A stretch of 64,000 bases of DNA from Anaerolinea thermophila (GTDB taxonomy: Bacteria > Chloroflexota > Anaerolineae > Anaerolineales > Villigracilaceae). The stretch is from assembly GCA_020722345.1 (NCBI GenBank), contig DYKZ01000001.1, forward strand, positions 18,108 to 82,107. Direction: 5' to 3'. Below are positions 1-36,333 of this stretch, piece after piece. The translations under genes and the position numbers were made by a program. Numbering within the stretch: position 1 is the stretch's first letter; the number at the start of each line of letters is the position of its first letter. The notes below the pieces were generated by a model. The model was given only the letters and a program-made list of their open reading frames with translations, searched no databases and was not told the origin of the DNA.

Positions 1-324
1 CGAGTTCACTTTACCTGCGAGGCAGAAAAGCTGGACAGCATCGGTCGGGTAATTGACTTCAACGACATCAAGTCACGCCTGTGCATGTGGCTCGAAGACG
101 AGTGGGATCACAAGACGCTCATCTGGGAGAACGATCCTTGGGCAAAGGTTCTGCCCAGCATCGACCCCACGATTGTCATCGTGCCGTTCAACCCGACGGC
201 CGAGAACATCGCGCGATACCTCGTCGAAGTCGTGGGGCCGCAGCAGCTCCAGGGCACCGGCATCAAGCTCGTCCACTGCGATGTCGAAGAGACGCGCAAG
301 TGCTCCGCCTCTTTCCACGCATAA
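1..324 (+). CDS. queD: 6-carboxy-5,6,7,8-tetrahydropterin synthase (QueD), 5'-truncated by window edge
   Basis: Frame 1 is open from nt 1 to TAA 322-324. The translation ...[52 protein letters not shown] matches the C-terminal half of PTPS/QueD (IDFxxLK, DHxxL, NPTxENIA, ET). Confidence 0.8.
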
Positions 325-334
325 GGTGACCCAA

Positions 335-1231
335 ATGAAGAAACTCAGTATCGGTGAACTCAACACGCTGGCCAAGCGCACGGCCCAGCAGATCAACAGC
401 GCCCGCGTAGCGGGGCAGATCGCGGGGCTGGTGGCTTACCCCATACCCCGTGGCGGTGTCAGCGCTGCGCTGGCTGTAGTCGCCTGCCTCGACGGTATGG
501 TGCTGACCGAGAACCCTGCCGAGGCGGACTTTTTCCTGGACGATCTGATCGACAGCGGCAGCACGATGGAACGCTGGTGCGACGAGCATCCGGGCAAGCC
601 GTTCTTCGCACTGATCGACAAGAAGTCCGAACCCGAGTTTCGCGACCGCTGGGTCGTGTTCCCGTGGGAGGAGACTGCCGAGGCTGGTATCGAGGATCAC
701 ATCGTGCGTCTGCTGGAATACGTCGGCGACGACCCATCGCGCGGCGGTCTGCTGGAGACGCCCAAGCGCGTAGCGAAGGCGTGGCGCCACTGGTGCGGCG
801 GCTACGGTAAGGATCCGAAAGAGCTGCTCAAGGTGTTCGAAGACGGTGCCGAGAAGCATGACCAGATGGTGACGGTCAAAGACATCCCCATCTACTCACA
901 CTGCGAGCACCATCTGGCTCCCATCTTCGGCACCGCGACCATCAGCTACATCCCGAACGGAAAGATCGTCGGTCTGAGCAAGCTGTCGCGCCTGGCGGAT
1001 ATGTTTGCGCGGCGCCTGCAAGTGCAGGAACGCCTGACCGACCAGATCGCGGACGCGCTGTTCGAGCACCTCGGAGCGAAGGGCGTCGGTGTGGTTATCA
1101 AGGCCCGCCATATGTGCATGGAGTCCCGGGGCATCTGCCAGCAAGGGCACCACACCATCACGACCGCGCTGCGCGGTGCCATGCGCGATGAGCCCGACAC
1201 CCGTGCCGAGTTTCTTCGGCTTGCCCAGTAA
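335..1231 (+). CDS. folE: Fusion protein: N-terminal Gpt-like type I phosphoribosyltransferase domain plus C-terminal GTP cyclohydrolase I (FolE)
   Basis: ATG at 335 starts MKKLSIGEL. The PRPP loop [12 protein letters not shown] and the ending RWVVFPWEE resemble xanthine-guanine PRTase. The C-terminal half has [40 protein letters not shown] and HMCMESRGI, all typical of FolE. The 392-aa track ORF's first 94 aa are an out-of-frame read through queD. Confidence 0.85.
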
Positions 1232-1247
1232 CCGCTAGTTCTGCTAC

Positions 1248-1278
1248 AATAACGGGACATTATCGATGTCCCGTTATT
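1248..1278 (+). promoter_or_regulatory. Perfect 13-bp inverted repeat (AATAACGGGACAT / ATGTCCCGTTATT, 5-nt loop) between folE and dpdA
   Basis: Read directly from the sequence. It sits just 5' of the GGAGG (1281-1285) and ATG 1290. No U-run follows. Confidence 0.4.
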
Positions 1279-1289
1279 ACGGAGGTCTC

Positions 1290-2210
1290 ATGAATATATT
1301 CATGGCGGCCGTTTATACGAACGGCTACATGCCGGGGCAAACCCGACACGCCAAGCTGACTGAACACGAGCAGAACATCTGTAAGAACCTGCCGCACATT
1401 CTCGAATCGTATCACTACGTCGGGAAACAGAAATACGTCGATGACATGCGTCGCGATGGTGCTAAAGTGTTCCTCGACTCCGGTGCGTTCTCTGCGTACA
1501 CGCTGGGAGTGGACATCAGCGTGGCTGAGTATTGCGACTATATCAATCGCAACCGAGACATCATCCGGGTTGAGGATGGTGTCATGATGGCGTCTGTGCT
1601 GGACGGCATCGGTGACCCGCTACAGACGTGGCGCAATCAACTCGAGATGGAGCAACGCGGGGCGAAGCCGCTGCCATGCTTCCACGCTGGTGAGGATGAG
1701 CGTTATCTGGAATGGTACGTCGCCAACTACGAATATATCACGCTGGGCGGCATGGTGGGCAGCTCCACGAAACAGCTCTGCATCTGGCTGGACCGCATGT
1801 GGGATCGCTACCTGACCGACGGTAGCGGGAACGCACGCATCAAGGTTCACGGGTTCGGCATCACCTCCATTCCTATCATGGAGCGCTATCCGTGGTATTC
1901 CTGTGACTCGTCCTCCTGGATTCAGTCTGCTGCGTTCGGTAGCATTGTTACACCGAAGCACGGGCCCATAAGCGTGTCCGAGAAGTCCCCCAGCAGGCAT
2001 GACGCGGGGCAGCACGTAACCACACTGACGCAGCAGGAGCAGGACTACGTTCTGCAGATGCTCGAGGAACAGGGCTTCACCTATGAGCGCCTGTCGTCTG
2101 TGTACGAATCGCGTGCCGCGTACAACCTCTGGGCATTCGGTGTTATCAACACTATGATCAACGCTGCGAACTCCGAGAAGTTCAAGGCCCGTGTCCAGGA
2201 GCTTTTCTGA
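1290..2210 (+). CDS. dpdA: DpdA-like DNA-guanine transglycosylase (TGT superfamily, 7-deazaguanine insertion into DNA)
   Basis: TGT-like motifs are present: VFLDSGAFS, ITLGGMVG, VHGFGIT, CDSSSW. There is no tRNA-TGT zinc site. The gene lies next to queD/folE. ATG 1290 has a GGAGG 4 nt upstream, whereas the in-frame ATG 1266 lies inside the hairpin. Confidence 0.75.
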   Translation: MNIFMAAVYTNGYMPGQTRHAKLTEHEQNICKNLPHILESYHYVGKQKYVDDMRRDGAKVFLDSGAFSAYTLGVDISVAEYCDYINRNRDIIRVEDGVMMASVLDGIGDPLQTWRNQLEMEQRGAKPLPCFHAGEDERYLEWYVANYEYITLGGMVGSSTKQLCIWLDRMWDRYLTDGSGNARIKVHGFGITSIPIMERYPWYSCDSSSWIQSAAFGSIVTPKHGPISVSEKSPSRHDAGQHVTTLTQQEQDYVLQMLEEQGFTYERLSSVYESRAAYNLWAFGVINTMINAANSEKFKARVQELF

Positions 2211-3163
2211 TGCTTAAAGAACTCAAATTCGTACAGGGCGCGGTGGCGAAGAAAGATTTCGTCCCCGCGATGACGCACTTTGCAATCGAAGACGGAACCG
2301 TGCGCTCGTATAACGGCACGCTGGCGCTGTGCAGCCCCATCCCGTTCGATATCAACTGCAAACCGAAAGCGGGCCCGCTGGTGCAAGCGATCAGCAATTG
2401 TGATGACACCGTCACGCTAAGCATGACGCCTGCGGGAAAGCTCAGAATTCAGAGCGGCAAGTTCAAGGCGTTCGTGGACTGCATCGAGGGTGAGACCGCT
2501 CACGTACTACCCGAGGGGCAGGAAGTCGATTTTGACGGCGAGCAGATTCTCAAGGCGTTCAAGACGCTGTCACCGTTCGTGGGCGATGACGCCTCGCGTC
2601 CGTGGACGAATGGTATTCTGCTCCGTGGGCAGTCGGCCTTCGCGACGAACAACGTGTGCCTCGTGGAGTATTGGGTCGGCGCGCAGATCCCATTCACCGC
2701 CAACATTCCGTTCCAAGCAATCCGCGAAATGCTCCGCATCAACGAAGCGCCCACGCATGCGCAGCTCACCGAAGGGAGCATCACCTTCCACTATACCGAC
2801 GGCCGCTGGATCCGCAGCCAGCTCTATAGCACCAGCTGGCCTGACCTGTCCCGCGTGCTGGACCGTGAGTGCGCACCTGTGGCCATCGACGAGCGTATTT
2901 TCGACGGTCTCGAGGTGATCAAGCCCTTTGCAGATAAGCTGGGCCGGGTGTTCTTCCACGGGGAAGCGGTCAAGACCCACATGGAAGAGGGCATCGGTGC
3001 TTCGTACGATATGCCCGGGTTTCAGGTTGAAGGCATCTATCAGATTGAGATGCTCAAGCTGCTGAAAGGTGTGTGTCACAAGATCGACTTCGCTGCGTAC
3101 CCGAACCCCTGCATCTTCTTCGGGGATCGCCTGCGGGGTGCAATCATAGGCATGCGCCTGTAA
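2210..3163 (+). CDS. DNA polymerase sliding clamp (beta-clamp-like)
   Basis: 317 aa. The N-terminus MLKELKFVQGAVAKKDFVPAMTHFAIEDGTV..GTLAL has the pattern of beta-clamp N-termini. The start overlaps the dpdA stop (TGATG) and the gene directly precedes a polymerase. Confidence 0.55.
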   Translation: MLKELKFVQGAVAKKDFVPAMTHFAIEDGTVRSYNGTLALCSPIPFDINCKPKAGPLVQAISNCDDTVTLSMTPAGKLRIQSGKFKAFVDCIEGETAHVLPEGQEVDFDGEQILKAFKTLSPFVGDDASRPWTNGILLRGQSAFATNNVCLVEYWVGAQIPFTANIPFQAIREMLRINEAPTHAQLTEGSITFHYTDGRWIRSQLYSTSWPDLSRVLDRECAPVAIDERIFDGLEVIKPFADKLGRVFFHGEAVKTHMEEGIGASYDMPGFQVEGIYQIEMLKLLKGVCHKIDFAAYPNPCIFFGDRLRGAIIGMRL

Positions 3164-3217
3164 GCTATACACCACAGCGCCACGGCCCGCTTAATGGCCT
3201 TTATTTGAGGAAAGTCA

Positions 3218-5428
3218 ATGCGTTCAGATGCTCTTGGTCTGTTCTGGGAAGACAGACCGCCACCGCCCAAAGAGAAGGCCGAAAAGGCAAAGCGGACCCC
3301 GCCGGACCCTGTATGGCTCCGCCCTGACTATCTGCCAGGGCTAGAAGAAGCGCTGCGCATGCCCATCGGGGTGATGACGCAGGCGGAGATGGTGCAGGCT
3401 GCAATGGCACGCGACCGCATGCTGTTCGACATCGAGTGTTATGAGAACTACTTCCTGGCATCGTTCCGCTCGCTGACGACCGGCAAGGTCGCATTCTTCG
3501 AGATGTACGAGGAACACCCACTCGACATCAACACGCTGGGATGGGCCTTGCAGAACTTCCTGACCGTTGGGTTCAACTCGCTCTCGTACGACTTGCCAAT
3601 CACCTATCTTGCACTCGCCGGCAAGCCTATGTCATTGCTGAAGCATGCAACGAACCAGATCGTTCTGGAGGGTTGGCGAGGGCAAGACGTGCTGAAACAG
3701 TACAAGGTGAAGGCGCTGAAGGTTGACCACATCGACCTGATCGAAGTCGCTCCGCTACGCGCCAGCCTGAAGATCTACGGCGGTAGGCTGCACGTTCCGC
3801 GTATGCAGGATCTGCCGTTCCACCCTGACACTATTCTGACACCCGAACAGCGTGCGATCGTTCGCTGGTACAACCTCAACAGCGACTTGACGAGCACAGG
3901 GTTCCTCCATGAGTGCCTACGCGAGCACCTGGACCTCCGTACTACTCTCTCGAACGAGATCGGGGTGGACCTGCGTAGCAAGTCAGACGCACAGATCGCT
4001 GAAGCGGTGATTGCGGAGGAATACCTGCGCCGCACGGGTAAGCGCCCGGAGAAGCCCATCATTGAGGTGGGCACGATGTACCGCTACCGCGTGCCCCAAT
4101 TCATCAAGTACCAGTCCGAACTCCTCAATTGGGCGCTCGGTGTGGTAGCGAACGCCAACTTCATCGTTGACGACACGGGATCCATCGGGATGCCGGAAGA
4201 GATCAAGGCGCTAAAGTTGGATATCAACGGGTCGGTGTACCGCATGGGCATCGGCGGTCTACACTCAAGCGAAAGCACCGCAGCGCACGTCAGCGACGAC
4301 CAGTACCTCCTGATCGACAAAGACGTGACATCGTACTACCCGTTCATCATCTTGAACCTCGGTCTGTACCCGCATCACCTGGGCCCGGTGTTTCTGCACA
4401 TCTATAAGAACATCGTTGACCGGCGCATTGCAGCCAAGGCGCGCGGGGACAAGGTGACCGCGGACTCCCTCAAGATCACGATCAACGGGTCGTTCGGCAA
4501 GCTGGGCAGCAAGTATTCGATCCTGTACTCGCCTGACCTGCTGATTCAGGTGACAGTGACGGGTCAGCTGAGCCTGCTGATGTTGATTGAGCGCCTGGAG
4601 ATAGCCGGCATCCATGTGGTCAGCGCCAACACCGACGGCATAGTGATCAAGTGCCCGCGCAACATGCAAGGCGTGATGGATGGCATCGTGGCGCAATGGG
4701 AAAAGGACACGGGCTTCCAGACTGAAGAGTCCCGTTACCTCGCTCTGTACAGTCGCGACGTGAATAACTACATCGCAGTCAAGCAGAAGCAAGATAAGGA
4801 GACTAAGGCCTGGCTGAACGAACCTGACGGAACGAAGTGCAAAGGCGCCTATGCCAACCCGTGGGCCAGCAAGAAGAACATGGCCGAACGGTTGCACAAG
4901 AACCCGACGAATACGATCTGCGTCGAGGCTGTGGAGGCGCTACTAACGAAGGGCGTGCCGATCACCACAACGATTCGCCAGTGCCGTGACATCACGAAGT
5001 TCGTTAGCGTGCGCAGCGTCAAGGGTGGCGCGGTGAAGGTGTGGGAGCGTATTCCTCCGCCCGCGCACACATCACAAGAAGAACTTCTGAGGATGGCTGG
5101 GTTCGTTCCGTTTTCTTCCGGTAGCTGGGTCAGGGGTGAAGACAAGCTGGGGCGCACTGCCATGGCGACCGATCGTGCGTATAAGGTAGCCTGGGACGAA
5201 CTGTCGAAGCCTGGGCTAACAGAGTTCCTGGGCAAGTCGATCCGCTGGTATTACGCGCAGGGCGTAGCGGGTGAGATCGTGTACGCGACGAACGGGAACA
5301 AGGTGCCCCGATCTGAGGGAGCGAAGCCCCTCATGGACCTGCCGAGTGAATTCCCGACCGACGTAGATTTCGAGTGGTACGAAGAGGAAGCTCGAAAGAT
5401 CCTCGAGGTGATAGGGTACGCCACATGA
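3218..5428 (+). CDS. Family B DNA polymerase with 3'-5' exonuclease domain
   Basis: Exo I FDIECYE, Exo II FNSLSYDLP, Exo III WYNLNSDL. Pol motif A DKDVTSYYPFII, motif B KITINGSFGKLG, motif C SANTDGIV. RBS GAGGAAA precedes the ATG. Confidence 0.85.
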   Translation: MRSDALGLFWEDRPPPPKEKAEKAKRTPPDPVWLRPDYLPGLEEALRMPIGVMTQAEMVQAAMARDRMLFDIECYENYFLASFRSLTTGKVAFFEMYEEHPLDINTLGWALQNFLTVGFNSLSYDLPITYLALAGKPMSLLKHATNQIVLEGWRGQDVLKQYKVKALKVDHIDLIEVAPLRASLKIYGGRLHVPRMQDLPFHPDTILTPEQRAIVRWYNLNSDLTSTGFLHECLREHLDLRTTLSNEIGVDLRSKSDAQIAEAVIAEEYLRRTGKRPEKPIIEVGTMYRYRVPQFIKYQSELLNWALGVVANANFIVDDTGSIGMPEEIKALKLDINGSVYRMGIGGLHSSESTAAHVSDDQYLLIDKDVTSYYPFIILNLGLYPHHLGPVFLHIYKNIVDRRIAAKARGDKVTADSLKITINGSFGKLGSKYSILYSPDLLIQVTVTGQLSLLMLIERLEIAGIHVVSANTDGIVIKCPRNMQGVMDGIVAQWEKDTGFQTEESRYLALYSRDVNNYIAVKQKQDKETKAWLNEPDGTKCKGAYANPWASKKNMAERLHKNPTNTICVEAVEALLTKGVPITTTIRQCRDITKFVSVRSVKGGAVKVWERIPPPAHTSQEELLRMAGFVPFSSGSWVRGEDKLGRTAMATDRAYKVAWDELSKPGLTEFLGKSIRWYYAQGVAGEIVYATNGNKVPRSEGAKPLMDLPSEFPTDVDFEWYEEEARKILEVIGYAT

Positions 5429-5507
5429 ACTGTTACACCTTCTGCGGTAGCACAAAGGTTGTGGGCAGTTTTGTGGAAAACGGGCTTGATAGGCTGCGCC
5501 TGACAGG

Positions 5508-5552
5508 ACGGGCTTGTCGATTGAAAGAAATATCGGCAAGCCCGTTTTTATT
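5508..5552 (+). terminator. Rho-independent terminator after the polB gene
   Basis: Stem ACGGGCTTG (5508-5516) pairs with CAAGCCCGT (5537-5545), with an inner TCGAT/ATCG extension, followed by TTTTTATT. An extra direct copy of ACGGGCTTG lies at 5480-5488. Confidence 0.6.
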
Positions 5553-5618
5553 GCTTGCATCTGCTCATGAGGTGTCCTACAGTTACACCATGCCGCAAGT
5601 CGATATTGGAGAGTTGAT

Positions 5619-5897
5619 ATGGAAGAGACCCTCATCGAGGAGATCGTGCTGCGTTACCGCCGTCTGGTTCCGATGACCACGCATGGCGAGCACCTGTTGT
5701 TCATGAAGGTGAAACACGCGCACATGATGCACCCTCTTCAGCTGGACGCACTGCTGATCGCTACCGACGAGGATCTCGTTCATGACGTGGAAGGCATTGC
5801 GCAACACTTCGACACCGCTGCCGGCGTTTACCGCGAGCTGTTTTGGCCGCGCTACGCGGCGGCGTGCGGTGGCCAGTGCAACCATACCGGCCACTAA
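5619..5897 (+). CDS. hypothetical protein
   Basis: 92-aa ORF with GGAG 7 nt upstream of the ATG. No recognisable motif. Confidence 0.45.
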   Translation: MEETLIEEIVLRYRRLVPMTTHGEHLLFMKVKHAHMMHPLQLDALLIATDEDLVHDVEGIAQHFDTAAGVYRELFWPRYAAACGGQCNHTGH

Positions 5898-5958
5898 CCG
5901 ATCGCGGCCTGTACCCCCGAAAGCGGGGCCCGCAGCATAGTTCAATAAGGAGAGCGCA

Positions 5959-6183
5959 ATGCGCAGACGTACCAAAGACAATTTCTATCGAATCTGCGCC
6001 GGTTTGGCCTTTGTTCTTGTGGCCGGTGTCGTCGGGTCCATGGACTACGAAGACGCAGTCCTGGAGGAGCGTGCATACTGCAAGAACGTCCACGAGGGCA
6101 TCTGGCCCGACTATGATGAAATCTATGCGGAGGTGTGCTATGAAGGCCAGCGTCGCGCTGATCTCGCTACTGCTGAGCGCTAA
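5959..6183 (+). CDS. hypothetical membrane protein
   Basis: AAGGAG RBS. One hydrophobic helix, ICAGLAFVLVAGVVG. Confidence 0.45.
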   Translation: MRRRTKDNFYRICAGLAFVLVAGVVGSMDYEDAVLEERAYCKNVHEGIWPDYDEIYAEVCYEGQRRADLATAER

Positions 6184-6535
6184 CGCTGCGCAGGCCTGTG
6201 ACTGGCGCTGCACCGCAGCCTGGTTCAACAGCGACCCAGCTACCCGCATGACAGCGGACGGCCCGAACCTTGCTGCCTACGGGCAAGCCGGCGCAAGCGG
6301 GGCGGAGGCGGTGTCGCGGTGCAAGCTGGACGTCGCGTATGCGGTGACCGAACTCGCCAAGCGGGAGGAGTTTCAGAGGAAGTGTTATGACCTGTATCGC
6401 GCTGACGTGCGCGAGGACATGCGGGCCGTAGATGCGCGGGTCGGTACGTCACCGTCGCGTGTGGACATTCATATCAACATTGAGCGGGAGAACGACAATG
6501 CGCCTCTTTATCAAGATCCCTGCCTGCGCTCGTGA
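6140..6535 (+). CDS. hypothetical secreted protein
   Basis: Internal ATG 6140 has GGAGGTG upstream. The N-terminus MKASVALISLLLSANAAQA looks like a Sec signal peptide. The upstream part of the 230-aa track ORF is Arg/Pro-rich and not protein-like. Confidence 0.5.
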   Translation: MKASVALISLLLSANAAQACDWRCTAAWFNSDPATRMTADGPNLAAYGQAGASGAEAVSRCKLDVAYAVTELAKREEFQRKCYDLYRADVREDMRAVDARVGTSPSRVDIHINIERENDNAPLYQDPCLRS

Positions 6536-6620
6536 TTGGCGGTGCGGTCGCCTGGATCCTAATCGAAATCTTCTCGACGATCAACACCGCCCTCACTACC
6601 GCCATGAAGGTCGCAGGGGG

Positions 6621-6989
6621 CTAGAGCGCCACTCCCGCTGACCAGCCGCCTGCCTTGAACGCGGAGAGCTTCTCCTCGTCCTCGATGTATGCGACCCAGC
6701 CAATGCGCGGTTGCGCGAATACCCAGGAGCCGGCCGGCGTGCCCGGAACCCATACGGCGACGTTTCCGTCGTACCCCAGCCAGGCATCGGTGGCGCCGGT
6801 CGGGACAATGTAGGTGTCGCCTTCTGCTGGTGCGCCTGGAGGTGCGGTGAGGTCGCGGTCCTTCACGGACAGGTGAAAGCCGAAGCGTCCCATGCGCAGC
6901 AGGTTCGCGTCCATGCCGGCGTTCCAGCCGTTCTCACCATACGTCCAGCCCCAGGCAAAGCCCGAGCGCGGTTCAGTCTTCGATGCCAT
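6621..6989 (-). CDS. DUF2793-like tail fibre-associated protein
   Basis: GDTYIVPTGATDAWLGYDGNVAVWVPG..WVFAQPRIGWVAYIEDE matches the DUF2793 pattern as I recall it (GDrYiv..atGaW.G....a.w..g.W.f..P..GW). It is the last gene of the tail module. Confidence 0.6.
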   Translation of the reverse strand: MASKTEPRSGFAWGWTYGENGWNAGMDANLLRMGRFGFHLSVKDRDLTAPPGAPAEGDTYIVPTGATDAWLGYDGNVAVWVPGTPAGSWVFAQPRIGWVAYIEDEEKLSAFKAGGWSAGVAL

Positions 6990-7001
6990 GTTGTTCTCCT
7001 G

Positions 7002-8237
7002 TTACGGGTTGCGCGGAACGAGGCCCGGGATCACCTCGAACTCGATGTTTGGGTCAAGATAAACGATGCGGTCAGGAAGCTGAAACCAGTCATAAGGCGA
7101 CGTGATCTTGCGCCGCGGCTTCAGCGCGCCGGTCGTGGCGTTGTCCAGGAGCTTCTGCTTGACCGCCTGAACCTGCGCCCGGGTCGTCAGCCTCCGGTAG
7201 CCCTGGAGCATACAGGCTACCACGCCGGCGACTATGGGCGTTGCGTAGCTCGTCCCGTTGCCGAGCCGGTAGCCGCCCCCCTCGGACGCCCTCTGAGCCG
7301 ATAGCGTGCGCTGGGCCGGGGCGAGAATGTCCACGTCAGTCAGGCTCCAGTTCGTCCCGTAGCCCGATTCAGGCGTGTAGTACGGGGTGTCATCCGGGGC
7401 GAGCCCGCCGCACACAATGGTGTCCGGGTCCGACTCCGCCGGGCGGATCACGGAGGCCGTGATGTCGGTCGCCTCGTTGCCTGCGGGATAGCAGCAGACG
7501 ATCCCCGCGTTGATCATGTCCGTCACCGCGGCGTCGATGGTACTGGAGAAGTCGGACCAGCTCATGAACATCACCGCCGGGCGGTCATCGTCCGCTTGGG
7601 TGTTGTACTGGGACAAGATCGCGCCCATGGCGGCGACCGCGTTGGTCACGCTTGCTCCCGAGTGGGCGTCGTAGAACTTCATGGAATGGCCGCGGGCTTC
7701 GCGGGCGATGCCGACCGTGCGCCCGAGGGCGAGCCCGAGGCAGTGCGAACCGTGACCGGAGGCGTCCAGCTCCGCTTTCGCGTAGTTCGAACGGTAGTGC
7801 CAATATTGGTTGACCCGGCCCCCGAACTCCGGGTGCGTGTACTCCACCCCGGAGTCGATGATAAAGATGTCCACCCCCGCTCCGGTCCGCTTCGCGTTGA
7901 ACGTCGAAGTGCGCGGGAACGGCAGCGCCCCGCCTCCGGGCGTCCACCACGGGTTCCTCCGGCGGATAACCCGGGCGGCGGACCAGCCGCCGGTTCCCCG
8001 CATGTTCTGCTCCAATACCAATTCCTGGAAGCAGGGCGTCAGTTCCTCGTCACCGTCATCGACGGCCTGGACCGAGGGGTGGGCGCGGAACGGAAATGCC
8101 GCCGCGGCCACTCCAGGCACGCGGAGATGGCGAGGAAGGCCCGGGAAGGGCTCAATGGTCAGGCCCGCGGCCCGGACCTCCTCCGCGAAGGCCGCGGCGA
8201 GGTCGGGCGACTTCAGCACAACGATAGTCTCAGCCAT
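7002..8237 (-). CDS. Subtilisin-family (peptidase S8) serine protease with N-terminal propeptide-like domain
   Basis: Catalytic triad contexts: IIDSGVEYTHPEF (Asp), SGHGSHCLG (His), GNGTSYATPIVAGVVA (Ser). About 110 aa lie N-terminal to the Asp box. Confidence 0.85.
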   Translation of the reverse strand: MAETIVVLKSPDLAAAFAEEVRAAGLTIEPFPGLPRHLRVPGVAAAAFPFRAHPSVQAVDDGDEELTPCFQELVLEQNMRGTGGWSAARVIRRRNPWWTPGGGALPFPRTSTFNAKRTGAGVDIFIIDSGVEYTHPEFGGRVNQYWHYRSNYAKAELDASGHGSHCLGLALGRTVGIAREARGHSMKFYDAHSGASVTNAVAAMGAILSQYNTQADDDRPAVMFMSWSDFSSTIDAAVTDMINAGIVCCYPAGNEATDITASVIRPAESDPDTIVCGGLAPDDTPYYTPESGYGTNWSLTDVDILAPAQRTLSAQRASEGGGYRLGNGTSYATPIVAGVVACMLQGYRRLTTRAQVQAVKQKLLDNATTGALKPRRKITSPYDWFQLPDRIVYLDPNIEFEVIPGLVPRNP

Positions 8238-8239
8238 GA

Positions 8240-8860
8240 TCAGACCACCACCGCGGAACCTTCGATGACCTCAAGGCACATCCACGTGTAGTTCGCCAGA
8301 ACGTCGTTCAGGTCTGAAGTCATATCGTAGCCGTTAATGCGCAGCTCGAAGTAGTCCCCCTCAACCACCGGGATTACAGCAGTTTGGGCGTGATAGATGT
8401 TATCTGTGTAACCCGAAGTGTAGTGCTTGTTGTTTTCGCTCCCCGCCCCCGGCCATCCGCCGGTGCCGTTCTTGTAAAAGGACGTGTACACGGAGTGGGA
8501 CGTGTTGACGGCGGTCAGCCCGACCTGCCCGCTCAGGCGGACCTTGTGGACCCCCGCCGGTATAGTGATCATGGTGGGCTGGCCCGCGTTCCAGAAGCCG
8601 TCCGTGTCGTAGGCTACCGCGTCCCATGGGATCAGGAACGGCTGGTTGACAATGGGCGCATCAACGAGGTCCACGGAGCGGTAGGCGAGCACGCCCCGGA
8701 ACGGGGTTGCCCAAGTCTGGGCGGAGGTGACCCCCGCCAGCGCAGCGGCGATCTGGGCCAAGGTCGCCTTCCGGCTGTTCCCCGCCTGTACCAAGTGAAG
8801 TAGCTCGTCCCCGGTGATCGCGTCCGCGGCGATCAGGTCCTCAATCGTCTTGTTTGCCAT
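8240..8860 (-). CDS. tail fibre protein
   Basis: The N-terminus MANKTIEDLIAADAITGDELLHLVQAGNSRKATLAQIA is typical of fibre N-termini. The C-terminus is beta-rich. Position in the tail-fibre block supports the call. Confidence 0.6.
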   Translation of the reverse strand: MANKTIEDLIAADAITGDELLHLVQAGNSRKATLAQIAAALAGVTSAQTWATPFRGVLAYRSVDLVDAPIVNQPFLIPWDAVAYDTDGFWNAGQPTMITIPAGVHKVRLSGQVGLTAVNTSHSVYTSFYKNGTGGWPGAGSENNKHYTSGYTDNIYHAQTAVIPVVEGDYFELRINGYDMTSDLNDVLANYTWMCLEVIEGSAVVV

Positions 8861-8872
8861 GATTCATTCCTC

Positions 8873-9229
8873 TCAAAGTTCAAGCAGGTCGCCGCCGGTC
8901 TGGGCGTCCCCGGACAGCATAAGGTTGTTGTCCAAGCCCTCGTCCAGCTCGTCCAAACTCAGCATCAGCTTCGCCCGGGGCGCGGGCGTCGCATCCGTGG
9001 TCACCTCTATCTCCGGCCCGACCTGCTGAAGCCCGGCGAGGAAGGCCGCCACGCGGTAGTAATAGGTGGTGTTGGGCAGCGCCGTCTCGTCCACGTACTC
9101 CGTGACGCCCGGCCCGACCTCCGCGAGCGGGGCCGGGAGGTTCTGAGGGTCCATCGGGCTCGTGGAGCGGTAGATGCGGTGCCCGTCCTCAACCGTGTTG
9201 TTGTCGTCCCACGTCAATAATACGCTCAT
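8873..9229 (-). CDS. FN3-like domain tail/fibre accessory protein
   Basis: LTWDDNNTVEDGHRIYRS...TEYVDETALPNTTYYYRVAAF has the fibronectin type III signature. It is paralogous to the N-terminus of the next gene. Confidence 0.55.
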   Translation of the reverse strand: MSVLLTWDDNNTVEDGHRIYRSTSPMDPQNLPAPLAEVGPGVTEYVDETALPNTTYYYRVAAFLAGLQQVGPEIEVTTDATPAPRAKLMLSLDELDEGLDNNLMLSGDAQTGGDLLEL

Positions 9230-9240
9230 TCAACCCTCCG

Positions 9241-10161
9241 TCAAACGTGTATCGCCAGTATAACGTCGCTCCGCCGGTCCTCCGGTTCCTCTAAGGACAC
9301 GTTCCAGCCCGCCGTCTCGAAATTGCACGCCTCGTTGGCGGCGGCTTCTACAAACCAAGCAAAATACCGCATTTGTCGCGCGTTCGGCTCCTCGATAGGC
9401 CAGCGGGTCGGGCGACACATCGGGATCATCCGTGACGGGAAGCCCTCCACGTAGGACTCGCCAGAGGTCGTTTGGTAAATCCAGGACGTACAGACCATCA
9501 CGAGCGCGGGCTTGTTCGTGTTCGTGAAGGTGAAGGCCGCGGCCCTCAGAGGGCCTTTGATCCTGGACGCGCCCAGAGGAGTCACCTGGAGGGGCTTCGA
9601 GTCATGGCGGATAACCGCGATGGAGGCCATCAGGCGCACGTTGCTCGCCTGCTGGAGCGTCACTTGCGCCCCTGACTCCGAGCCGTCCGCGATCTTCCAC
9701 AGGGCGAACGTCCATTGTTGGAAGCCGTTGTCCGCGTCCGCCGGTTCCGGCCCCAGGGTCCATCCCGGAGGCGTGGATACCCAAGCGTCCCGGCGAGCCC
9801 CGAAGATAACGAGCAGGTCCCCTGCCTTACAATCCGGGACCGTCAGCGTGAGGGTCGCACCGTCGCCGTTGTACCCCAGCTGAATTTGCTGCGTCGCGTA
9901 CAGGAAGCGCGGCAGCTCCTCCTCCGGGGTCACGGCCCGCGCTACGCCTTCGCCCACCTCCTCGTTGACGAACGGGGCGACGTAGTAGTGCTGTTGGACG
10001 CCCGCGGGGGCGGTCTGGTCCTCGAACACCCCCCGGCCCGCCGGCACGGAGGCCAGGGGCGCGGGCAGGGCCTGCGGGTCAATCGGGGCCGGGTCCCGGA
10101 AGATTTGAACACCGTCCTCCGCCAGCTCCCGGTCTTTCCAAGTGAGACGTACTTTCGCCAT
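9241..10161 (-). CDS. tail fibre/baseplate protein with N-terminal FN3-like module
   Basis: RLTWKDRELAEDGVQIFRD..PQALPAPLASV..HYYVAPF parallels the 8873-9229 product. The C-terminal 200 aa are unassigned. Confidence 0.55.
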   Translation of the reverse strand: MAKVRLTWKDRELAEDGVQIFRDPAPIDPQALPAPLASVPAGRGVFEDQTAPAGVQQHYYVAPFVNEEVGEGVARAVTPEEELPRFLYATQQIQLGYNGDGATLTLTVPDCKAGDLLVIFGARRDAWVSTPPGWTLGPEPADADNGFQQWTFALWKIADGSESGAQVTLQQASNVRLMASIAVIRHDSKPLQVTPLGASRIKGPLRAAAFTFTNTNKPALVMVCTSWIYQTTSGESYVEGFPSRMIPMCRPTRWPIEEPNARQMRYFAWFVEAAANEACNFETAGWNVSLEEPEDRRSDVILAIHV

Positions 10162-10162
10162 A

Positions 10163-13045
10163 TCAAACTCCTCCGCCGACCGCGTAGGCTTCCACGTCTA
10201 CCGGCGCGAACAGGTTGCCCGTCTTAGCCGCCATGTTAGAAGGCGGCGCCAAGAGCGGCAGCTTCAGCTCCGCTGGCCTCCAGGACTTGAGCCCATCCCG
10301 AACCGCCCGGACCTGGAGCACGAGAATGGCGGAACCGTCCGGGATAGTGTGTTCAAGCAGGTCAATCGTGTAGGTTTTCAACGCCCCGATGTCCTGCTGG
10401 AAGAACTGAACCTGGTTGCCGTCCTCCGTCTCGCCCAACATCGTGATCTCATAGGTGGTTCCAGCCTCCGGGACCACCTCCCCGTCCGTCCAGGCGAGCG
10501 GAACACCGCCCGTCTCCTGGAGCCGGTTGCGGCCCACCCACGTCGCCACCGCCGGGTAAGCCACGTTGTCGTTGGGGTCCACGTCCAGCTCGCCGTTGAT
10601 GCGGAGGTTCGCCGGGCGGTAGGGCCGGGCCGCGCGTCCCTCTATCGTCAGGGACATTTCCGGGGCCGCGGCGATGTCCAGCTGGCCGGAGCCCGTGACG
10701 GTCGCCAGCTTGACACGGACCTGCTCGCTGTTGACATACTCCGTGGGGGAGCCCGCCGGGAAGGCGTCCCAGAAGTAGATGACGGACCCCGCGCCGTGCT
10801 CCTTGGGCACCGTGTCATAGATCGCGCGGCGGACCGTCACGGTGTTGAGCACCGGGTCCAGCGCCTCGATCCACACCAGCTCCTCCCCGATCTGGGCCCA
10901 TGACGGGACCTCGACCAGATCAAGGTCCACGCCGCCTTGTATGGAGAACTCAGTGTTGAATCGCCCAACGGGTGCGGACAGCTTCGCGTAGGGGCAGAAG
11001 TCCAGCACCCCGGCTTCCTCGAAGGTTTCGCCCAGGCCCGCCGCCGTGTAGAGACGGGCGTTGAGGCTCGCCACGTTCGGACGGCCCGCCGCCGCCCCCA
11101 CGTAGCCCAGATCAGGCTCCGCGGCCAGGGTCTGGTCAGTCTGCGCCTGCCCCTGCTGTTGAACCAGCTCGATGTACGGGATTTCGTACACGATCTGATC
11201 AGCCACCGGGGTCGGGCCGCTGTTCGGGTCCTCCCATTGCGGCGGGTCGGGCGTGACCAGCGCCGTCTCCGGGAGGTCGAACACGTCCTCAGTACAGGTG
11301 ATTTTGATGCGGTTCGTCCGTCCGTCGCCATAGGCGATGCCGTTGACGCGCATCACCACCTCGCTGAGGTTGTAGTCCGCCCAGGACAGCTTGAACACGT
11401 CGCCAATCGTCAGGTCCTTCGCCGTCCGGTCCGCGTAGATGGTACACGAGGCCCGCTGCGAGGAGAGGGCCTTGAGGTCACGTTGCGCGACCCGGGAGGC
11501 AATGGCGGGGTCCACAAATCCCGGGTACTGGATGGTGGTCCCGATAGTGACGCCCTGCATCTGCTGAAGCGCGATGTCCTGGGCGGACACGCTCGCGTCC
11601 CTCCCGGTATTCACGTTCCAGTAGTTGACCGTGACCGCGTTCGTCAGCTCCCCGAAGGCCGGGCGCGTGAAGTTCTCGATCTTGTCAATATTGTCTTCGT
11701 TCAGGTGAAGCAGGTTGTCCTTGTTGTATCCTCCGCGGATCAGCTTCAGAGTGAACAGGCCGGTCTTGCGGTCCACGTACAGGGCCGCGTCGATATGCTT
11801 CACAATCTCCCCGATGAAGTCCTCAATCGGGGTCTGGCGGTCCCAGAGGATGCTGATGCCCATCCGCTCGTTGTAGAGCTGGTCCGCCGCGGCCATGAAG
11901 GACTGGTCATCCACCTCCGCGTCCGAGTAGCCCATGCCCCAATCGGGGTCGGTCAGGCACTCCCGGATGATGTGGGCCGGGTTCATGGCGGAGCTGTCGC
12001 CCATCACCGCGAAGAACACCGCGTTGTACAGGGCGTTGGACTCCGCGGAGTCAACCACCGGGATACCGTCCTGCGGCGTGTTCTCGACCAACGCGATGTA
12101 GGAGGTGTTTGAGAGGTCGATGCTGATGCCGTACACGTCCACGGGGCTCTGCGCCCAGACGCCCTCCTTGCGGATCATCGGACCCGCGACGGCCAGCGCC
12201 TGATCGACCGTGGTGGCGGGTTCCGGGAGGCCGTCCGTGATGAAGAACATCGCCCGGCGGCGACCGTCCGCGGAGCCGGGCTGAAACCAGTTGACCGCGT
12301 TGCCGTAGGGCTGGCTGAAGTCGGTCCCTCCCGAGGCGGACAAGCCGTCCACAAAGTTCTTGAGGTCCTGTATGTCCGCGGAGGAGACGTTGAAGCGGCT
12401 CATCTGGGTCGTGGACGTGCTCCAGCCGCAGACAGCGATGTCCACCTGGACCTTGGAGTCAATCCGCAGTTGGTCGATAGCGTCCAGCACCGCCTTCATC
12501 TGGGTCTTGGCGAGCTGGAGACGGGTCAAGCCGCCCGACACCACCGTGTCCATCGACCCGGACGTGTCCAGGGCGAAGAAGAACATTTGGCGCTGCTTGA
12601 AGTTCGAGGCGACCTTGATTTCAGCCTTCGGGTAGTACCACTGAGCCGCGCCGCTCTGGCGCATATGAATGCGCTGGACCCTGAATGCCCACTTCTTCAG
12701 GTACGGGTTCAGCCCGAGGTACACCTGACGGAGGACCACGCCGACAACGCCCCGGTAGGCCGGAATCAGGGACCCGAGCTTGCTGAGCAGGTAGCTGTTC
12801 TGCCCCTGGGCCGGTCCGCCGGGCTCGAAGTCCACCGTGCCCTGGATACCGCCCTCCCGGCTTTCGCCGCCGAACAGGTCCGGGTTGTCCACGTAGATGG
12901 AGCCGCTGTTGCGGTCGCCCAACCAGGCGTCCTTCCCGTCCACTCGAATGCGCAGGATGCGATCCACCGGACCGTGGCACAGGATCATGTGCATGCCCAA
13001 GTAGTATTTGTATCCAACGGTGACTTTCTTACTGCTTCCGCCCAC
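10163..13045 (-). CDS. tail tip / host-specificity protein (GTA g15-like body) with inserted vWA domain
   Basis: GTG start with GGAGG upstream. The N-terminus GGSSKKVTVGYKYYLGMHMILCHGPV matches the conserved GGGKG..YsY..alCeGpi region of GTA-type host-specificity proteins. vWA MIDAS DTSGSMD...GGTDF...FFITDGLPEP lies near aa 160-340. Confidence 0.75.
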   Translation of the reverse strand: MGGSSKKVTVGYKYYLGMHMILCHGPVDRILRIRVDGKDAWLGDRNSGSIYVDNPDLFGGESREGGIQGTVDFEPGGPAQGQNSYLLSKLGSLIPAYRGVVGVVLRQVYLGLNPYLKKWAFRVQRIHMRQSGAAQWYYPKAEIKVASNFKQRQMFFFALDTSGSMDTVVSGGLTRLQLAKTQMKAVLDAIDQLRIDSKVQVDIAVCGWSTSTTQMSRFNVSSADIQDLKNFVDGLSASGGTDFSQPYGNAVNWFQPGSADGRRRAMFFITDGLPEPATTVDQALAVAGPMIRKEGVWAQSPVDVYGISIDLSNTSYIALVENTPQDGIPVVDSAESNALYNAVFFAVMGDSSAMNPAHIIRECLTDPDWGMGYSDAEVDDQSFMAAADQLYNERMGISILWDRQTPIEDFIGEIVKHIDAALYVDRKTGLFTLKLIRGGYNKDNLLHLNEDNIDKIENFTRPAFGELTNAVTVNYWNVNTGRDASVSAQDIALQQMQGVTIGTTIQYPGFVDPAIASRVAQRDLKALSSQRASCTIYADRTAKDLTIGDVFKLSWADYNLSEVVMRVNGIAYGDGRTNRIKITCTEDVFDLPETALVTPDPPQWEDPNSGPTPVADQIVYEIPYIELVQQQGQAQTDQTLAAEPDLGYVGAAAGRPNVASLNARLYTAAGLGETFEEAGVLDFCPYAKLSAPVGRFNTEFSIQGGVDLDLVEVPSWAQIGEELVWIEALDPVLNTVTVRRAIYDTVPKEHGAGSVIYFWDAFPAGSPTEYVNSEQVRVKLATVTGSGQLDIAAAPEMSLTIEGRAARPYRPANLRINGELDVDPNDNVAYPAVATWVGRNRLQETGGVPLAWTDGEVVPEAGTTYEITMLGETEDGNQVQFFQQDIGALKTYTIDLLEHTIPDGSAILVLQVRAVRDGLKSWRPAELKLPLLAPPSNMAAKTGNLFAPVDVEAYAVGGGV

Positions 13046-13235
13046 GGGCCGCCTCCACTACTTGGAGGGCCATCGGATCGCCGGTGGCCACGAGTTTGTC
13101 CGCGGCGATCCCGTTCGCCAGGAACTCCGACCAGTTGAGCCCGTGTCGCTCGAAGAAGGCCCGCGCCCCGCGGGAGCACATCTTGACGGCTCGCACGTCA
13201 TCCATTCGGATGATCAGTTGGCTATCGTCCGTCAT
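13029..13235 (-). CDS. hypothetical protein lying between the two host-specificity gene pieces
   Basis: 68 aa. ATGA overlap with the upstream gene and 17-nt overlap with the downstream GTG. The sequence MTDDSQLIIRMDDVRAVKMCSRGARAFFERHGLNW is not assignable. Confidence 0.5.
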   Translation of the reverse strand: MTDDSQLIIRMDDVRAVKMCSRGARAFFERHGLNWSEFLANGIAADKLVATGDPMALQVVEAARGRKQ

Positions 13236-13465
13236 TTCTTGCCGCCCTTCTTCTTGATCGCCACGGTGCGCAAGTCACCGAACCACACCACGTTCGGCCC
13301 TTCAATGTCCCGGGTCCCGAACAGCACCGGGATTTCCCGGCCCTCCTCCGCGGTCGGCACCTTGAAGTCGCCCAGGCCCGCGGGCTTCGCGTTCTGCGGC
13401 TTGGGCGTCAGCGAGTAGCTGACCACCAGCGCGACCACGAAGACCGCGATGTACCACCAAACCAT
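13232..13465 (-). CDS. N-terminal fragment-like piece of host-specificity protein (TM helix plus IPxxFGTxxxxGxxxW box)
   Basis: ATG 13465 has GGAGG upstream. The product MVWWYIAVFVVALVVSYSL...EIPVLFGTRDIEGPNVVWFGDLRTV..KKKGGKK resembles the extreme N-terminus of GTA g15-type proteins. Confidence 0.5.
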   Translation of the reverse strand: MVWWYIAVFVVALVVSYSLTPKPQNAKPAGLGDFKVPTAEEGREIPVLFGTRDIEGPNVVWFGDLRTVAIKKKGGKK

Positions 13466-13478
13466 GGTCTGGCCTCCT

Positions 13479-14924
13479 CTACACGATGGATGAACCGTCG
13501 AACGGATTGCGAATGGGTATCCAGTCAAATCCGCCGTAGTTCATCAAGTTATTGAAACGCCCGTGGCAGGTCCCCCGGGTCCGGTCGCACCCCGGGAACA
13601 TGCGCACTGCCGCGCCGCCGTAATACTGGCCATAGGATAGCCCGTAGCCGTCAAGCGCCAAAGCCTTCGCCATCGACTCGAACGGACGGAGGAGGGTCAG
13701 CTGGTTCCCCACGTGGTTCGTGATGAAGCGCAGCGTCCCGTCCGGGCCTTCGAGGATGCCCGTGGTGAAGTAGCCGTTGGGGTAGGCCGCGGCCTCCGGG
13801 ACCGTGACCACGAGGCCGTTGATGGCGGTCGGGACGCCCTTGACGGCCCAGGCTTCCTTACTCACCCCGCAACCGCGGGAGTACAGCATGTGGCGGCAGC
13901 TCCGCTGATAGCGGGCGCGGAGCCCGGGGCGGCGCAGCGACGTGAACACGGACTCAAAGTTGAGGATGATTTCGCTCATGGTGGGCTTGACGCCCGACAA
14001 CCGGCCCTTCCAGACGATGCTGATTTCATCGTCCTCGTCCCGCTCGAAGATCGTCAGTGTGACCAGCGTCTCTACGTGGTCGTGGAGCCAGCGTTGTCCC
14101 ATGGAGTTGCCCAGGTCCACCTTGACTTCGATGTTCGCCCGGCTCAGTTCGTTCTTCGTCTCCGCCTCGCTGCGACCGATAGGCACGGGCGTGTACGTCT
14201 CGCCCATGTAGTCCACCGGCTCGTCCCCGCTCGTGAAGGTCCAGACCTCCGACTCAGTAGGCCCCGCGCTCAGGATGGCGTTGTACAAGGCGTCCGAGTT
14301 CGTGGAGGAGAGGACCGGCACGCCGTCCCGGGGCGTGTTGTCGAGCAGCCCAAGATAGGTCGTGTCATAATGGTCCACGGACATACAATAGATGTCCACC
14401 TCATTCCCGGAGGCGGGCGAGAAGGCCCCGGTGCGGGTGATCATGTCCGCCGCGAGGCTCGCCGCGTTCGCGGCAGAGCTGGCGGGCTCCGGCACCCCGT
14501 CCGTGATGAAGAACAGGGACTGGCGGAAGTCCGCCGGGGTCGGGGTCAGGAAGTAGTTGCGCGCCGCGGCCACGGGCGCGTCATAGGGCGTCCCGCCCTC
14601 AGCGACCAGCCCATCAATCCACGCCTTCAGGTCCGCGATGGAGGAGCTGGAGACGTTCCGGCGGACAATCGTCACGGTCCCGGTCCCGGAGAAGGCCGCC
14701 ATGCCGATATGGACAGCCACGTTCTTCTCAATCCGCTTCCGGTCGATTTCGTCCAGGACCCGCTTCAGCTGATCCTTGGCGACCTGGAACCGGGTCATCC
14801 CGGGCGACCCCTGTTCATTCATGGACCCGGACTTGTCCACGATGAAGTAGAAGTTTTGGTTGCCGTCGAAGGGGTCCTTGAGCCCCTGCTCGACAAATCT
14901 GTACATCTCAACTTTTGTACTCAT
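13479..14924 (-). CDS. tail hub protein (DUF2163 / BR0599-like, GTA g13-like) with N-terminal vWA domain
   Basis: The C-terminus FPGCDRTRGTCHGRFNNLMNYGGFDWIP is the BR0599 signature. The N-terminus carries vWA MIDAS DKSGSMN...GGTPYD...FFITDGVPEP. Confidence 0.7.
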   Translation of the reverse strand: MSTKVEMYRFVEQGLKDPFDGNQNFYFIVDKSGSMNEQGSPGMTRFQVAKDQLKRVLDEIDRKRIEKNVAVHIGMAAFSGTGTVTIVRRNVSSSSIADLKAWIDGLVAEGGTPYDAPVAAARNYFLTPTPADFRQSLFFITDGVPEPASSAANAASLAADMITRTGAFSPASGNEVDIYCMSVDHYDTTYLGLLDNTPRDGVPVLSSTNSDALYNAILSAGPTESEVWTFTSGDEPVDYMGETYTPVPIGRSEAETKNELSRANIEVKVDLGNSMGQRWLHDHVETLVTLTIFERDEDDEISIVWKGRLSGVKPTMSEIILNFESVFTSLRRPGLRARYQRSCRHMLYSRGCGVSKEAWAVKGVPTAINGLVVTVPEAAAYPNGYFTTGILEGPDGTLRFITNHVGNQLTLLRPFESMAKALALDGYGLSYGQYYGGAAVRMFPGCDRTRGTCHGRFNNLMNYGGFDWIPIRNPFDGSSIV

Positions 14925-16090: not shown

Positions 16091-16091
16091 A

Positions 16092-36031: not shown

Positions 36032-36333
36032 TTCGCGGCCTCCGAGTCGAAGAAGCGGGGCAGGAAGCAGCGGGTGAGCTTCCCGGTGGAGCGGTCGATG
36101 CGACCGGCGATCCCGCCCACGTCATGGGCGAAGTTGAAGTCATCTGCCTCCAGGAGGTCGCGGAGCCGGAGGGGGCAACCGTTCAGGTGCGTCGCCGTCA
36201 GGTCCATGCTGGCGCTGAGGCGGTCGAAGTTCTCCGCAGGGTACAGGCGCTTGAACAGGGCTTCGTGGCGGTCCACGATCTGTTCGATCAGGGCCGCGTC
36301 CTCCTGGGTCGCGTCGAAGTTGATGAGGGTCAT
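36028..36333 (-). CDS. hypothetical protein
   Basis: 101-aa ORF with ATGA coupling. Confidence 0.55.
   Translation of the reverse strand: MTLINFDATQEDAALIEQIVDRHEALFKRLYPAENFDRLSASMDLTATHLNGCPLRLRDLLEADDFNFAHDVGGIAGRIDRSTGKLTRCFLPRFFDSEAAK

Follow-up and report, generated by a model that had tools for sequence, protein, structure and literature searches.

Phages of the Queuovirinae carry gene clusters whose products place 7-deazaguanine bases in DNA. In phage 9g, the proteins DpdA and Gat-QueC are sufficient to place 2'-deoxyarchaeosine (dG+) in the DNA of Escherichia coli, and a little of another 7-deazaguanine derivative, dPreQ0, is also found in plasmid DNA of E. coli carrying 9g dpdA and gat-queC when Gat-QueC is expressed less than DpdA (Hutinet et al., PMC6884629). 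The virion DNA of the Nipunavirus phage Quinobequin-P09 shows a G:C ratio below 1 and a fifth nucleoside, of 308 Da and with the fragmentation of dG+, which takes the place of part of the dG; its gene cluster is depicted as being the 2'-deoxyarchaeosine cluster also present in PaMx25 and 9g (PMC6884629 supplement). Olsen et al. (2023) stated the rule that Gat-QueC goes with dG+ and described queE, queC, queD, folE, dpdA as a conserved succession (PMC10484667). Phages CAjan and iggy, which have a plain or an atypical QueC, make dPreQ0 (PMC10484667, PMC10516641). Here, a cluster of this kind is described at the start of a 64,000-nt stretch of contig DYKZ01000001.1 (assembly GCA_020722345.1, filed under Anaerolinea thermophila; positions 18,108 to 82,107). 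This whole stretch is called the window, and all coordinates are window positions.

The first 2,210 nt of the window very probably represent the 3' half of a 2'-deoxyarchaeosine operon of Nipunavirus type (Queuovirinae), made up of queE, gat-queC, queD, folE (here with a phosphoribosyltransferase-like extension) and dpdA. Gene identities, synteny and the conservation of catalytic residues are seen directly in this DNA. The first-pass annotation, made from the letters alone, had placed QueD, FolE and DpdA-like genes in this region and had described queD as truncated by the window edge; indeed, all three genes are present with matches far beyond chance, and 107 of the 139 residues of QueD lie inside the window. 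This fragment of the 6-carboxy-tetrahydropterin (CPH4) synthase QueD matches the Pfam family PTPS (PF01242, E=2.8e-13, with 50 bits where the cut-off is 22.4) and the QueD-like PHROG 2389 (E=3.7e-36), and shares 90.7% amino acid identity with residues 33-139 of PaMx25 QueD. The NCBIfam QueD equivalog gives 77 bits, under its cut-off of 89, and the protein is thus taken to be a divergent phage QueD. The catalytic and zinc motif (C-x3-HGH, as KCAHLHGH) lies upstream of nucleotide 1 and is read only on the metagenome contig L005, described below, which encodes the full 139-aa protein.

The first ~6 kb of the window share ~81% nucleotide identity with the Nipunavirus phages PaMx25, NP1, Quinobequin-P09, JG012, TIVP-H6 and others. 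Protein identities fall between 82 and 91%: against PaMx25, FolE reaches 90.6%, DpdA 89.1% (annotated there as 'tgt'), the clamp-like processivity factor 82% (gp34) and the DNA polymerase PolB 83% (gp33). In PaMx25 and Quinobequin-P09 the genes follow each other as queE, gat-queC, queD, folE, dpdA, clamp and DNA polymerase, an order also kept from queE to PolB in NP1 and matched by the window from queD onward, where the clamp gene is translationally coupled to dpdA by an ATGA overlap (2207-2212). The divergence of ~19% in nucleotides from this group corresponds to a distinct species-level lineage, seen in metagenomes only (contigs L005 and L006, and L007 at 97%).

The third gene is dpdA. Its start is placed at the ATG at 1290. 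This codon follows a GGAGG and is supported by nearly all homologues as well as by the genes called on identical contigs; the earliest ATG of the open reading frame (ORF), at 1266, is not taken as the start. Apart from the PaMx25 protein, DpdA is 72-74% identical over 100% of its length (tblastn) to its counterparts in Nonagvirus (JenK1, JenP1, slur01) and Seuratvirus (Seurat) phages, and 68% identical to that of iggy, whose dPreQ0 system has the same gene order (PMC10484667). More than 3,300 homologues are found in metagenomes, whereas scans of IMG/VR, GTDB genomes and JGI metagenome contigs for an exact 44-nt pattern of dpdA yielded 0 hits. The crystal structure of the bacterial DpdA of the Dpd system of S. 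Montevideo provides a frame for reading these sequences: the roles assigned there are general acid/base for D95, nucleophile for D256, reading of the base for D130 and H181, stacking on the base for F99 and the loop at the 7-substituent for G206-G207, and an insertion is held in place by a CXCX2CX22H zinc site (Gedara et al. 2023, PMC10164549). Six elements are invariant in 24 homologues of the window protein, and by motif and spacing, rather than by a solved structure, they are mapped to this enzyme as D63/D95, F67/F99, D105/D130, H132/H181 (within H132-A-G134), G153-G154/G206-G207 and D206/D256. The double-displacement chemistry proposed for the bacterial enzyme would apply to the window protein as well. 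In agreement with this mapping, two independent hidden Markov models (HMMs) of bacterial DpdA place residues 147-213 on model positions 199-262 in local, weak alignments (NCBIfam E=0.006; PADLOC E=0.003).

The window protein is nevertheless set apart from both bacterial DpdA and tRNA-guanine transglycosylases (TGTs). With the bacterial DpdA equivalog NF041059 it scores 15.4 bits against a cut-off of 200, it lacks the zinc motif, it has 306 rather than ~400 residues, and no gene for the DpdB ATPase is adjacent; it is therefore not a bacterial DpdA. No match to the Pfam TGT family (PF01702) was obtained at E<=0.01. Its cysteines are found only at positions 31, 82, 130, 164 and 205, none of them after D206, so a CxCxxC...H zinc site cannot exist, and the 306-aa chain has no PUA or other tRNA-binding extension. 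The first-pass annotation had reported TGT catalytic boxes in the absence of tRNA-TGT features, had proposed a search with models of the DpdA subfamilies, and had named a zinc site, a tRNA-binding domain or kinship with TGTs as what would speak against a DpdA. All the boxes it quoted are there (DSGAF at nt 1476-1490, LGGMVG at 1743-1760, HGFG at 1848-1859 and CDSSSW at 1902-1919), PHROG 887 is matched strongly and the bacterial DpdA models only weakly, and neither the zinc site nor the tRNA-binding extension is found. Kinship to the characterised DpdA1 proteins of the 9g/CAjan group, the catalytic Asp pair together with the base-binding residues, and the association with preQ0 genes all go in the same direction. 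Since the catalytic residues are kept and the zinc site is absent, the protein is best understood as working like DpdA and TGT enzymes while being neither a tRNA-TGT nor a bacterial DpdA, and is assigned to DpdA1. By analogy with the experiments on 9g DpdA (PMC6884629), it would exchange guanine in DNA and not in tRNA.

The short spacer between folE and dpdA also resembles that of the Nipunaviruses. It contains a perfect hairpin, with a centroid energy of -18.9 kcal/mol and a minimum free energy of -21.8 kcal/mol for the 76-nt stretch around it (z=-3.4 against shuffles), at the same place where PaMx25 annotates a 'terminator'. A promoter-like TTGCCC-18-TACAAT is seen at 1221-1250. The window lacks the additional ORF that separates folE from dpdA in PaMx25 and NP1 and that the NP1 annotation calls a homing endonuclease.

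The second gene had been called FolE on motifs described as unambiguous. This holds for its C-terminal part: the matched residues 119-297 reach 234 bits with Pfam GTP_cyclohydroI (PF01227, E=8e-70, cut-off 27) and 216 bits with NCBIfam folE (TIGR00063, cut-off 181.6), both above the curated thresholds, and the zinc and catalytic motifs CEHH (aa 190-193) and MCMESRG (aa 260-266) provide the ligands C190/H193 and C261. In the AlphaFold2 (AF2) model of the protein (pLDDT 96 overall), the C-terminal part superposes on GTP cyclohydrolase I structures from human, T. thermophilus and M. tuberculosis in the PDB with a TM-score of 0.9, 44-48% identity and E about 1e-22. HMM scores, zinc ligands and T-fold match all identify a type IA GTP cyclohydrolase I. 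The gene product is not a plain FolE: it has an additional N-terminal domain of ~113 aa, which the earlier reading had missed.

As a single sequence, this N-terminal domain is matched below threshold (PHROG 8995 'phosphoribosyl transferase', E=1e-4; Pfam Pribosyltran, E=0.14), and its 11.9 bits with PF00156 stay under the gathering threshold of 26.3. An exhaustive search returned 424 cluster representatives. Among 56 sampled homologues, 43 also contain GTP cyclohydrolase I and 7 match Pfam Pribosyltran at E<=0.001. A domain-only profile of 30 homologues matches the xanthine-guanine phosphoribosyltransferase (XGPRT) of E. coli and Yersinia at E=1e-10 across almost all of the domain, with one alignment spanning XGPRT residues 2-140. 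The conserved motifs include a pyrophosphate (PPi) loop, P38-R-G40-G41, a phosphoribosyl pyrophosphate (PRPP) loop, D69-D70-x-x-D73-S-G75-x-T77, followed by K96, W106 and P110-W111-E; D69, D70, G75, T77, G40, G41, W106, P110 and W111 are invariant, and D73, S74 and K96 are kept in at least 90%. E. coli XGPRT (Gpt, PDB 1A95-1A98) has in common with the domain the R-G-G of the PPi loop, the DD..D-S/T-G-x-T of the PRPP loop and a C-terminal PW(D/E). The domain differs from it in size (~113 against 152 aa), in its fusion to GTP cyclohydrolase I, and in lacking the flexible loop, as XGPRT residues ~57-83 (~27 residues) align to only ~5 of its residues. In XGPRT, K115 contacts O6 of the purine and W134 stacks on it; in the alignment these correspond to K96 and W106, which we take to have the same roles. 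The PRPP loop, the PPi loop and the purine-contact residues expected of a type I purine phosphoribosyltransferase (PRT) are thus present. The AF2 model is confident across the domain (pLDDT ~97), and Foldseek with the whole fusion protein returned GTP cyclohydrolase I chains only, leaving the PRT fold unseen there.

The fusion is a conserved variant that is common to the known Nipunaviruses and not specific to the window, although it goes undiscussed, being not mentioned in the key papers on phage deazaguanines. Quinobequin-P09, with 297 aa, and all metagenome contigs have one PRT-folE gene of 297/298 aa called. The first ~31 aa of the domain diverge from the Nipunavirus relatives. The domain occurs in 34 records of isolated phages, always within genes annotated 'GTP cyclohydrolase', from Nipunaviruses, 42-kb Pseudomonas and Stenotrophomonas phages, Vibrio VpKK5-like phages and Sphingomonas phage MMDA13. 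No match to it was found in 9g, CAjan or iggy-type genomes, whose FolE, unlike that of the window, has no XGPRT-like domain. PaMx25 has a separately annotated ORF here, gp38 (PaMx25 record L001, 12300-12674, 'hypothetical protein'), which might argue against a fusion. This objection was rejected, as the PRT-like frame runs into folE in PaMx25 too. The gp38 call lies in a different frame, overlapping both queD and folE, and looks spurious; the true frame at this place is that of the PRT-like N-terminal extension of folE.

Judging from its motifs, the domain most plausibly binds a 6-oxopurine together with PRPP or a nucleotide. Its role could plausibly be either of two. It may be a minimal guanine-salvage enzyme that feeds GTP to FolE, a role made attractive by the fact that DpdA frees one guanine for each base inserted. 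Alternatively, it may be a sensor of purine or PRPP that tunes FolE to the purine supply, which the missing flexible catalytic loop would favour. That the domain is an active salvage enzyme turning the guanine excised by DpdA into GMP, and so closing a loop from guanine through GTP and preQ0 to DNA, is considered rather doubtful.

The genes that decide which 7-deazaguanine is made lie outside the window. The first-pass annotation had supposed that queC and queE lie upstream, and this is borne out by the synteny in all Nipunavirus relatives and by contig L005 (JGI metagenome 3300000227, TB_AS07_7DRAFT_10003116). This contig was found by exact-protein look-up, is 99.97% identical to window positions 1-7155 (two positions differ) and reaches 3,776 nt further upstream, where QueE and Gat-QueC are encoded directly before queD. 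The QueE-like radical-SAM protein has 240 aa and the motif CNLQCPGC, and matches several NCBIfam QueE models. The 464-aa Gat-QueC starts with MCAIIG, which provides the Cys2 of an Ntn amidotransferase, and matches both GATase_7 (E=4e-8) and QueC (E=1e-53), with an SGGLDS PP-loop and a cluster of Cys residues at the C-terminus. It thus shows, on L005, the two parts that characterise Gat-QueC, an N-terminal class-II glutamine amidotransferase with Cys2 and, in fusion with it, a QueC PP-loop ATPase.

The derivative had earlier been regarded as impossible to infer here. This remains true of the window alone and no longer applies once the Gat-QueC of L005 and the dG+ data from relatives are used. 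Since Gat-QueC replaces QueC on L005 and the virion DNA of Quinobequin-P09 contains dG+, the module is most likely of the dG+ (archaeosine) type, as far as homologues and a contig beyond the window can indicate. Among other systems, the 9g (dG+) and CAjan (dPreQ0) clusters follow the same pathway logic with the same DpdA subfamily, and Gat-QueC is shared with 9g. The window lineage differs from iggy, which has an atypical long QueC without the Gat domain and makes dPreQ0; the DpdA of iggy has a strict GA motif. Host range differs as well, being of the Pseudomonas type for the window lineage and enterobacterial for 9g and CAjan. It is improbable that the cluster installs another 7-deazaguanine (dPreQ0, dADG or other), either through an inactive amidotransferase half or through a DpdA that prefers another base. 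CAjan and iggy, which make dPreQ0 (PMC10484667, PMC10516641), are close relatives within the Queuovirinae, some dPreQ0 appears with the 9g genes at lower Gat-QueC expression (PMC6884629), and the window itself contains no gene that settles the derivative; however, L005 encodes a full Gat-QueC with the catalytic Cys2 and GATase_7 domain, phages with Gat-QueC have dG+ (PMC10484667, PMC6884629), and Quinobequin-P09, with the same gene set, has dG+ (PMC6884629 supplement).

By analogy with experiments on homologues, a reaction scheme, its product and a protective function can be proposed. FolE would convert GTP to 7,8-dihydroneopterin triphosphate (H2NTP), from which QueD would make CPH4 and QueE 7-carboxy-7-deazaguanine (CDG); the QueC half of Gat-QueC would then produce preQ0. 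After replication, DpdA would excise guanine at specific sites in the phage DNA and insert the 7-deazaguanine base; D206 would attack as nucleophile to give a covalent enzyme-DNA intermediate, and D63 would serve as general acid/base. The glutamine-amidotransferase half of Gat-QueC would turn the nitrile into the formamidine, before or after insertion. The expected outcome is dG+ at a fraction of the G positions and phage DNA shielded from restriction enzymes.

A separate question is which phage owns the module. The first-pass annotation gave no switch of phage type, and the window does change type after ~7 kb. Nipunavirus-like similarity runs past PolB and over the convergent point into a DUF2793 gene and the C-terminal part of a subtilisin-like S8-peptidase gene, to ~7.56 kb. 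From 17.9 kb to the window end, identity to the Yuavirus phages M6, LKO4 and PSP2 is 93-96%, and this part has its own PolA, primase, ribonucleotide reductase, helicases and structural genes. The tail-tip genes in between (7.5-17.9 kb) are divergent from all isolates and common in metagenomic Yuavirus-like contigs, at 86-91% nucleotide identity; equivalents of LKO4 gp82 and gp83 are absent from them. The S8-peptidase gene is itself a mosaic, with ~186 C-terminal residues resembling the Nipunavirus-like lineage and a divergent N-terminal part. The pair formed by this gene and DUF2793 is kept in both Nipunavirus-like (L007) and Yuavirus-like (L026) metagenomic lineages and is not found in LKO4. 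Exact-protein look-ups with the S8 peptidase and the tape-measure protein gave no match.

In L026, which shares its tail-tip genes with the window, the order is tail protein, proteins of 304, 117 and 201 aa, S8 peptidase and DUF2793, then gp01 and the helicase gp02 on the same strand, an arrangement that agrees with the circular LKO4 genome, with closure at ~60 kb. A complete Yuavirus-like genome of ~60 kb is therefore already contained in the window, from gp02 (cut at 64000) to DUF2793 (6621), and the Nipunavirus-like module is joined exactly at the closure point of this genome. The Yuavirus-like part also contains a second, unrelated DNA hypermodification system, located at 50.5-57.0 kb: a thymidylate-synthase-like dUMP hydroxymethylase, a radical-SAM 'photolyase', a PLP enzyme and an ADDT/aGPT-Pplase-family gene. 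In M6-type phages, thymidine hypermodification is of the 5-NedU, or 5-(2-aminoethyl)uracil, type (PMC5889632, PMC6449724).

The join is most likely a co-assembly chimera of two co-occurring phages, formed through a shared, near-identical tail-tip segment, and we hold with high confidence that the dG+ module belongs to a separate Nipunavirus-like phage of ~58-59 kb, like that of L007. As a consequence of this probable chimera, the Yuavirus-like genome probably does not include the cluster. In the JGI assembly of the same material, contigs end at 7155 (L005) and 7417 (L027), flanking a segment of ~260 bp, and a Logan contig ends at 6918. Over window positions 7417-13406, L027 is a variant at 97.1% that co-occurs in the sample, and further contigs of these samples (L009, L011 and L023) are 100% identical to the window. 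Moreover, the protein-cluster record of a window tail protein lists an NCBI contig of 111,818 bp, about the sum of the two genomes. GC content showed no clean junction position in the window. A crude concatenation at ~6.5 kb, suggested by the end of the Quinobequin-P09 record, was rejected, as homology continues to ~7.56 kb and all ORFs are intact.

It is unlikely, by contrast, that the window faithfully represents part of a single phage, namely an M6-type Yuavirus-like siphovirus of at least 70 kb that acquired the dG+ module with PolB and clamp, has two replication modules and is hypermodified on both G and T. The window is continuous, its ORFs run intact across the transitions, including that of the S8 peptidase over the switch point, a replication module convergent with tail genes is the native Nipunavirus layout, and recombination within tail genes is common. 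Nevertheless, a complete Yuavirus gene set is already present without the module, DUF2793 is directly followed by gp01 and helicase gp02 in LKO4 and L026, and the addition of at least 10.4 kb would bring the genome to at least 70 kb, against 58-62 kb for all relatives. The 111,818-bp contig, the breaks of two independent assemblies at 6.9-7.4 kb and the 97% tail-tip variant in the sample also speak for two phages. The salvage-enzyme role of the XGPRT-like domain is more likely than such a doubly modified hybrid, and less dramatic.

Least credible of all, with hardly any weight left to it, is that the genes are auxiliary metabolic genes for tRNA queuosine or archaeosine or for folate or biopterin in a phage with unmodified DNA: databases do label the third gene 'queuine tRNA-ribosyltransferase', and FolE and QueD homologues also act in folate and tRNA pathways, but this DpdA has neither a Pfam TGT match nor a zinc site nor a tRNA-binding domain, 9g dpdA modifies DNA and fails to complement E. 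coli tgt (PMC6884629), dpdA sits within a DNA-replication module and is coupled to the clamp gene, and a close relative has modified virion DNA (PMC6884629 supplement).

Some points weigh against the assignment of the module to a Nipunavirus-type dG+ operon. The product would be read from relatives at ~89% identity (DpdA) and lower, and gat-queC and queE are outside the window and known only from the near-identical contig of another assembly. The AF2 model of DpdA is mediocre, with a mean pLDDT of 62 (~75 in the core and <50 in the C-terminal 100 aa), and Foldseek against the PDB gave the archaeosine TGT (ArcTGT) structure 1j2b at a top probability of 0.98 with a weak E=0.027 and TM=0.44, the other matches being generic TIM barrels. 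Searches of PDB sequences with phmmer and with a 24-sequence DpdA profile gave no match, to TGTs or otherwise, the homologues being too close (at least 78%) for a sensitive profile. The catalytic mapping consequently rests on motif spacing and the two weak HMM alignments. Finally, the flexible catalytic loop found in type I PRTs is missing from the XGPRT-like domain, which may therefore not be an enzyme.

The positions of the features are collected in Table 1. As a separate observation, a DUF6874 gene lies downstream of PolB at 5619-5897 (+), and a distant paralogue of it, with ~33% amino acid identity to PaMx25 gp32, is found at 36052-36300 (-) in the Yuavirus-like part.

Table 1. Features of the window discussed in the text, in window coordinates.
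Feature	Position	Strand	Description
queD, 3' part	1..324	+	Frame 1, stop 322-324; C-terminal part (residues 33-139), cut by the window edge
folE gene	335..1231	+	ATG 335; 298 aa; PRT-like domain and GTP cyclohydrolase I
XGPRT (Gpt)-like phosphoribosyltransferase domain	335..673	+	aa 1-113; in-frame fusion to FolE
GTP cyclohydrolase I (FolE) domain	689..1231	+	aa 119-298 plus stop
Hairpin	1248..1278	+	Perfect 14-bp stem, 3-nt loop, in the 58-nt folE-dpdA spacer, directly before the dpdA ribosome-binding site; no T-run
dpdA (DpdA1 subfamily)	1290..2210	+	306-aa predicted DNA guanine/7-deazaguanine transglycosylase; PHROG 887, E=1.1e-99
Clamp-like DNA polymerase processivity factor (context)	2210..3163	+	PHROG 947, E=3.6e-81
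Family-B-type DNA polymerase (PolB), Nipunavirus-like replication module (context)	3218..5428	+	PHROG 1252, E=4e-211
DUF2793 gene	6621-6989	-	Next after the S8-peptidase gene
Subtilisin-like Peptidase_S8 gene	7002-8237	-	411 aa; distal end of the tail-tip operon
Tail-tip module	7500-17900	-	Tape-measure C-terminus; proteins of 389 aa, 481 aa (VWA), 960 aa (VWA/Phage-tail_3), 306, 118 and 206 aa
M6/LKO4-type thymidine hypermodification genes	50477-51529, 53520-54944, 55022-55852, 56088-56957	-	95-99% amino acid identity to LKO4

Collectively, the module is an environmental addition to the known dG+ clusters of the Queuovirinae, and its core departs nowhere from the published systems. The window also shows that assembly can fuse two co-occurring phages that share a tail-tip module: taken at face value, it would wrongly suggest a doubly hypermodified 'super-phage', and a true hybrid would combine dG+ with 5-NedU-type thymidine hypermodification in one phage. 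This probable example of assembly fusion and the XGPRT-like domain are worth more than the cluster itself. As a new environmental lineage of a well-characterised anti-restriction system, the cluster is one of those that help to predict which phage DNA resists restriction enzymes, Cas9 and sequencing chemistries, and the XGPRT-like domain on FolE offers a connection of purine salvage with DNA hypermodification that can be put to the test.

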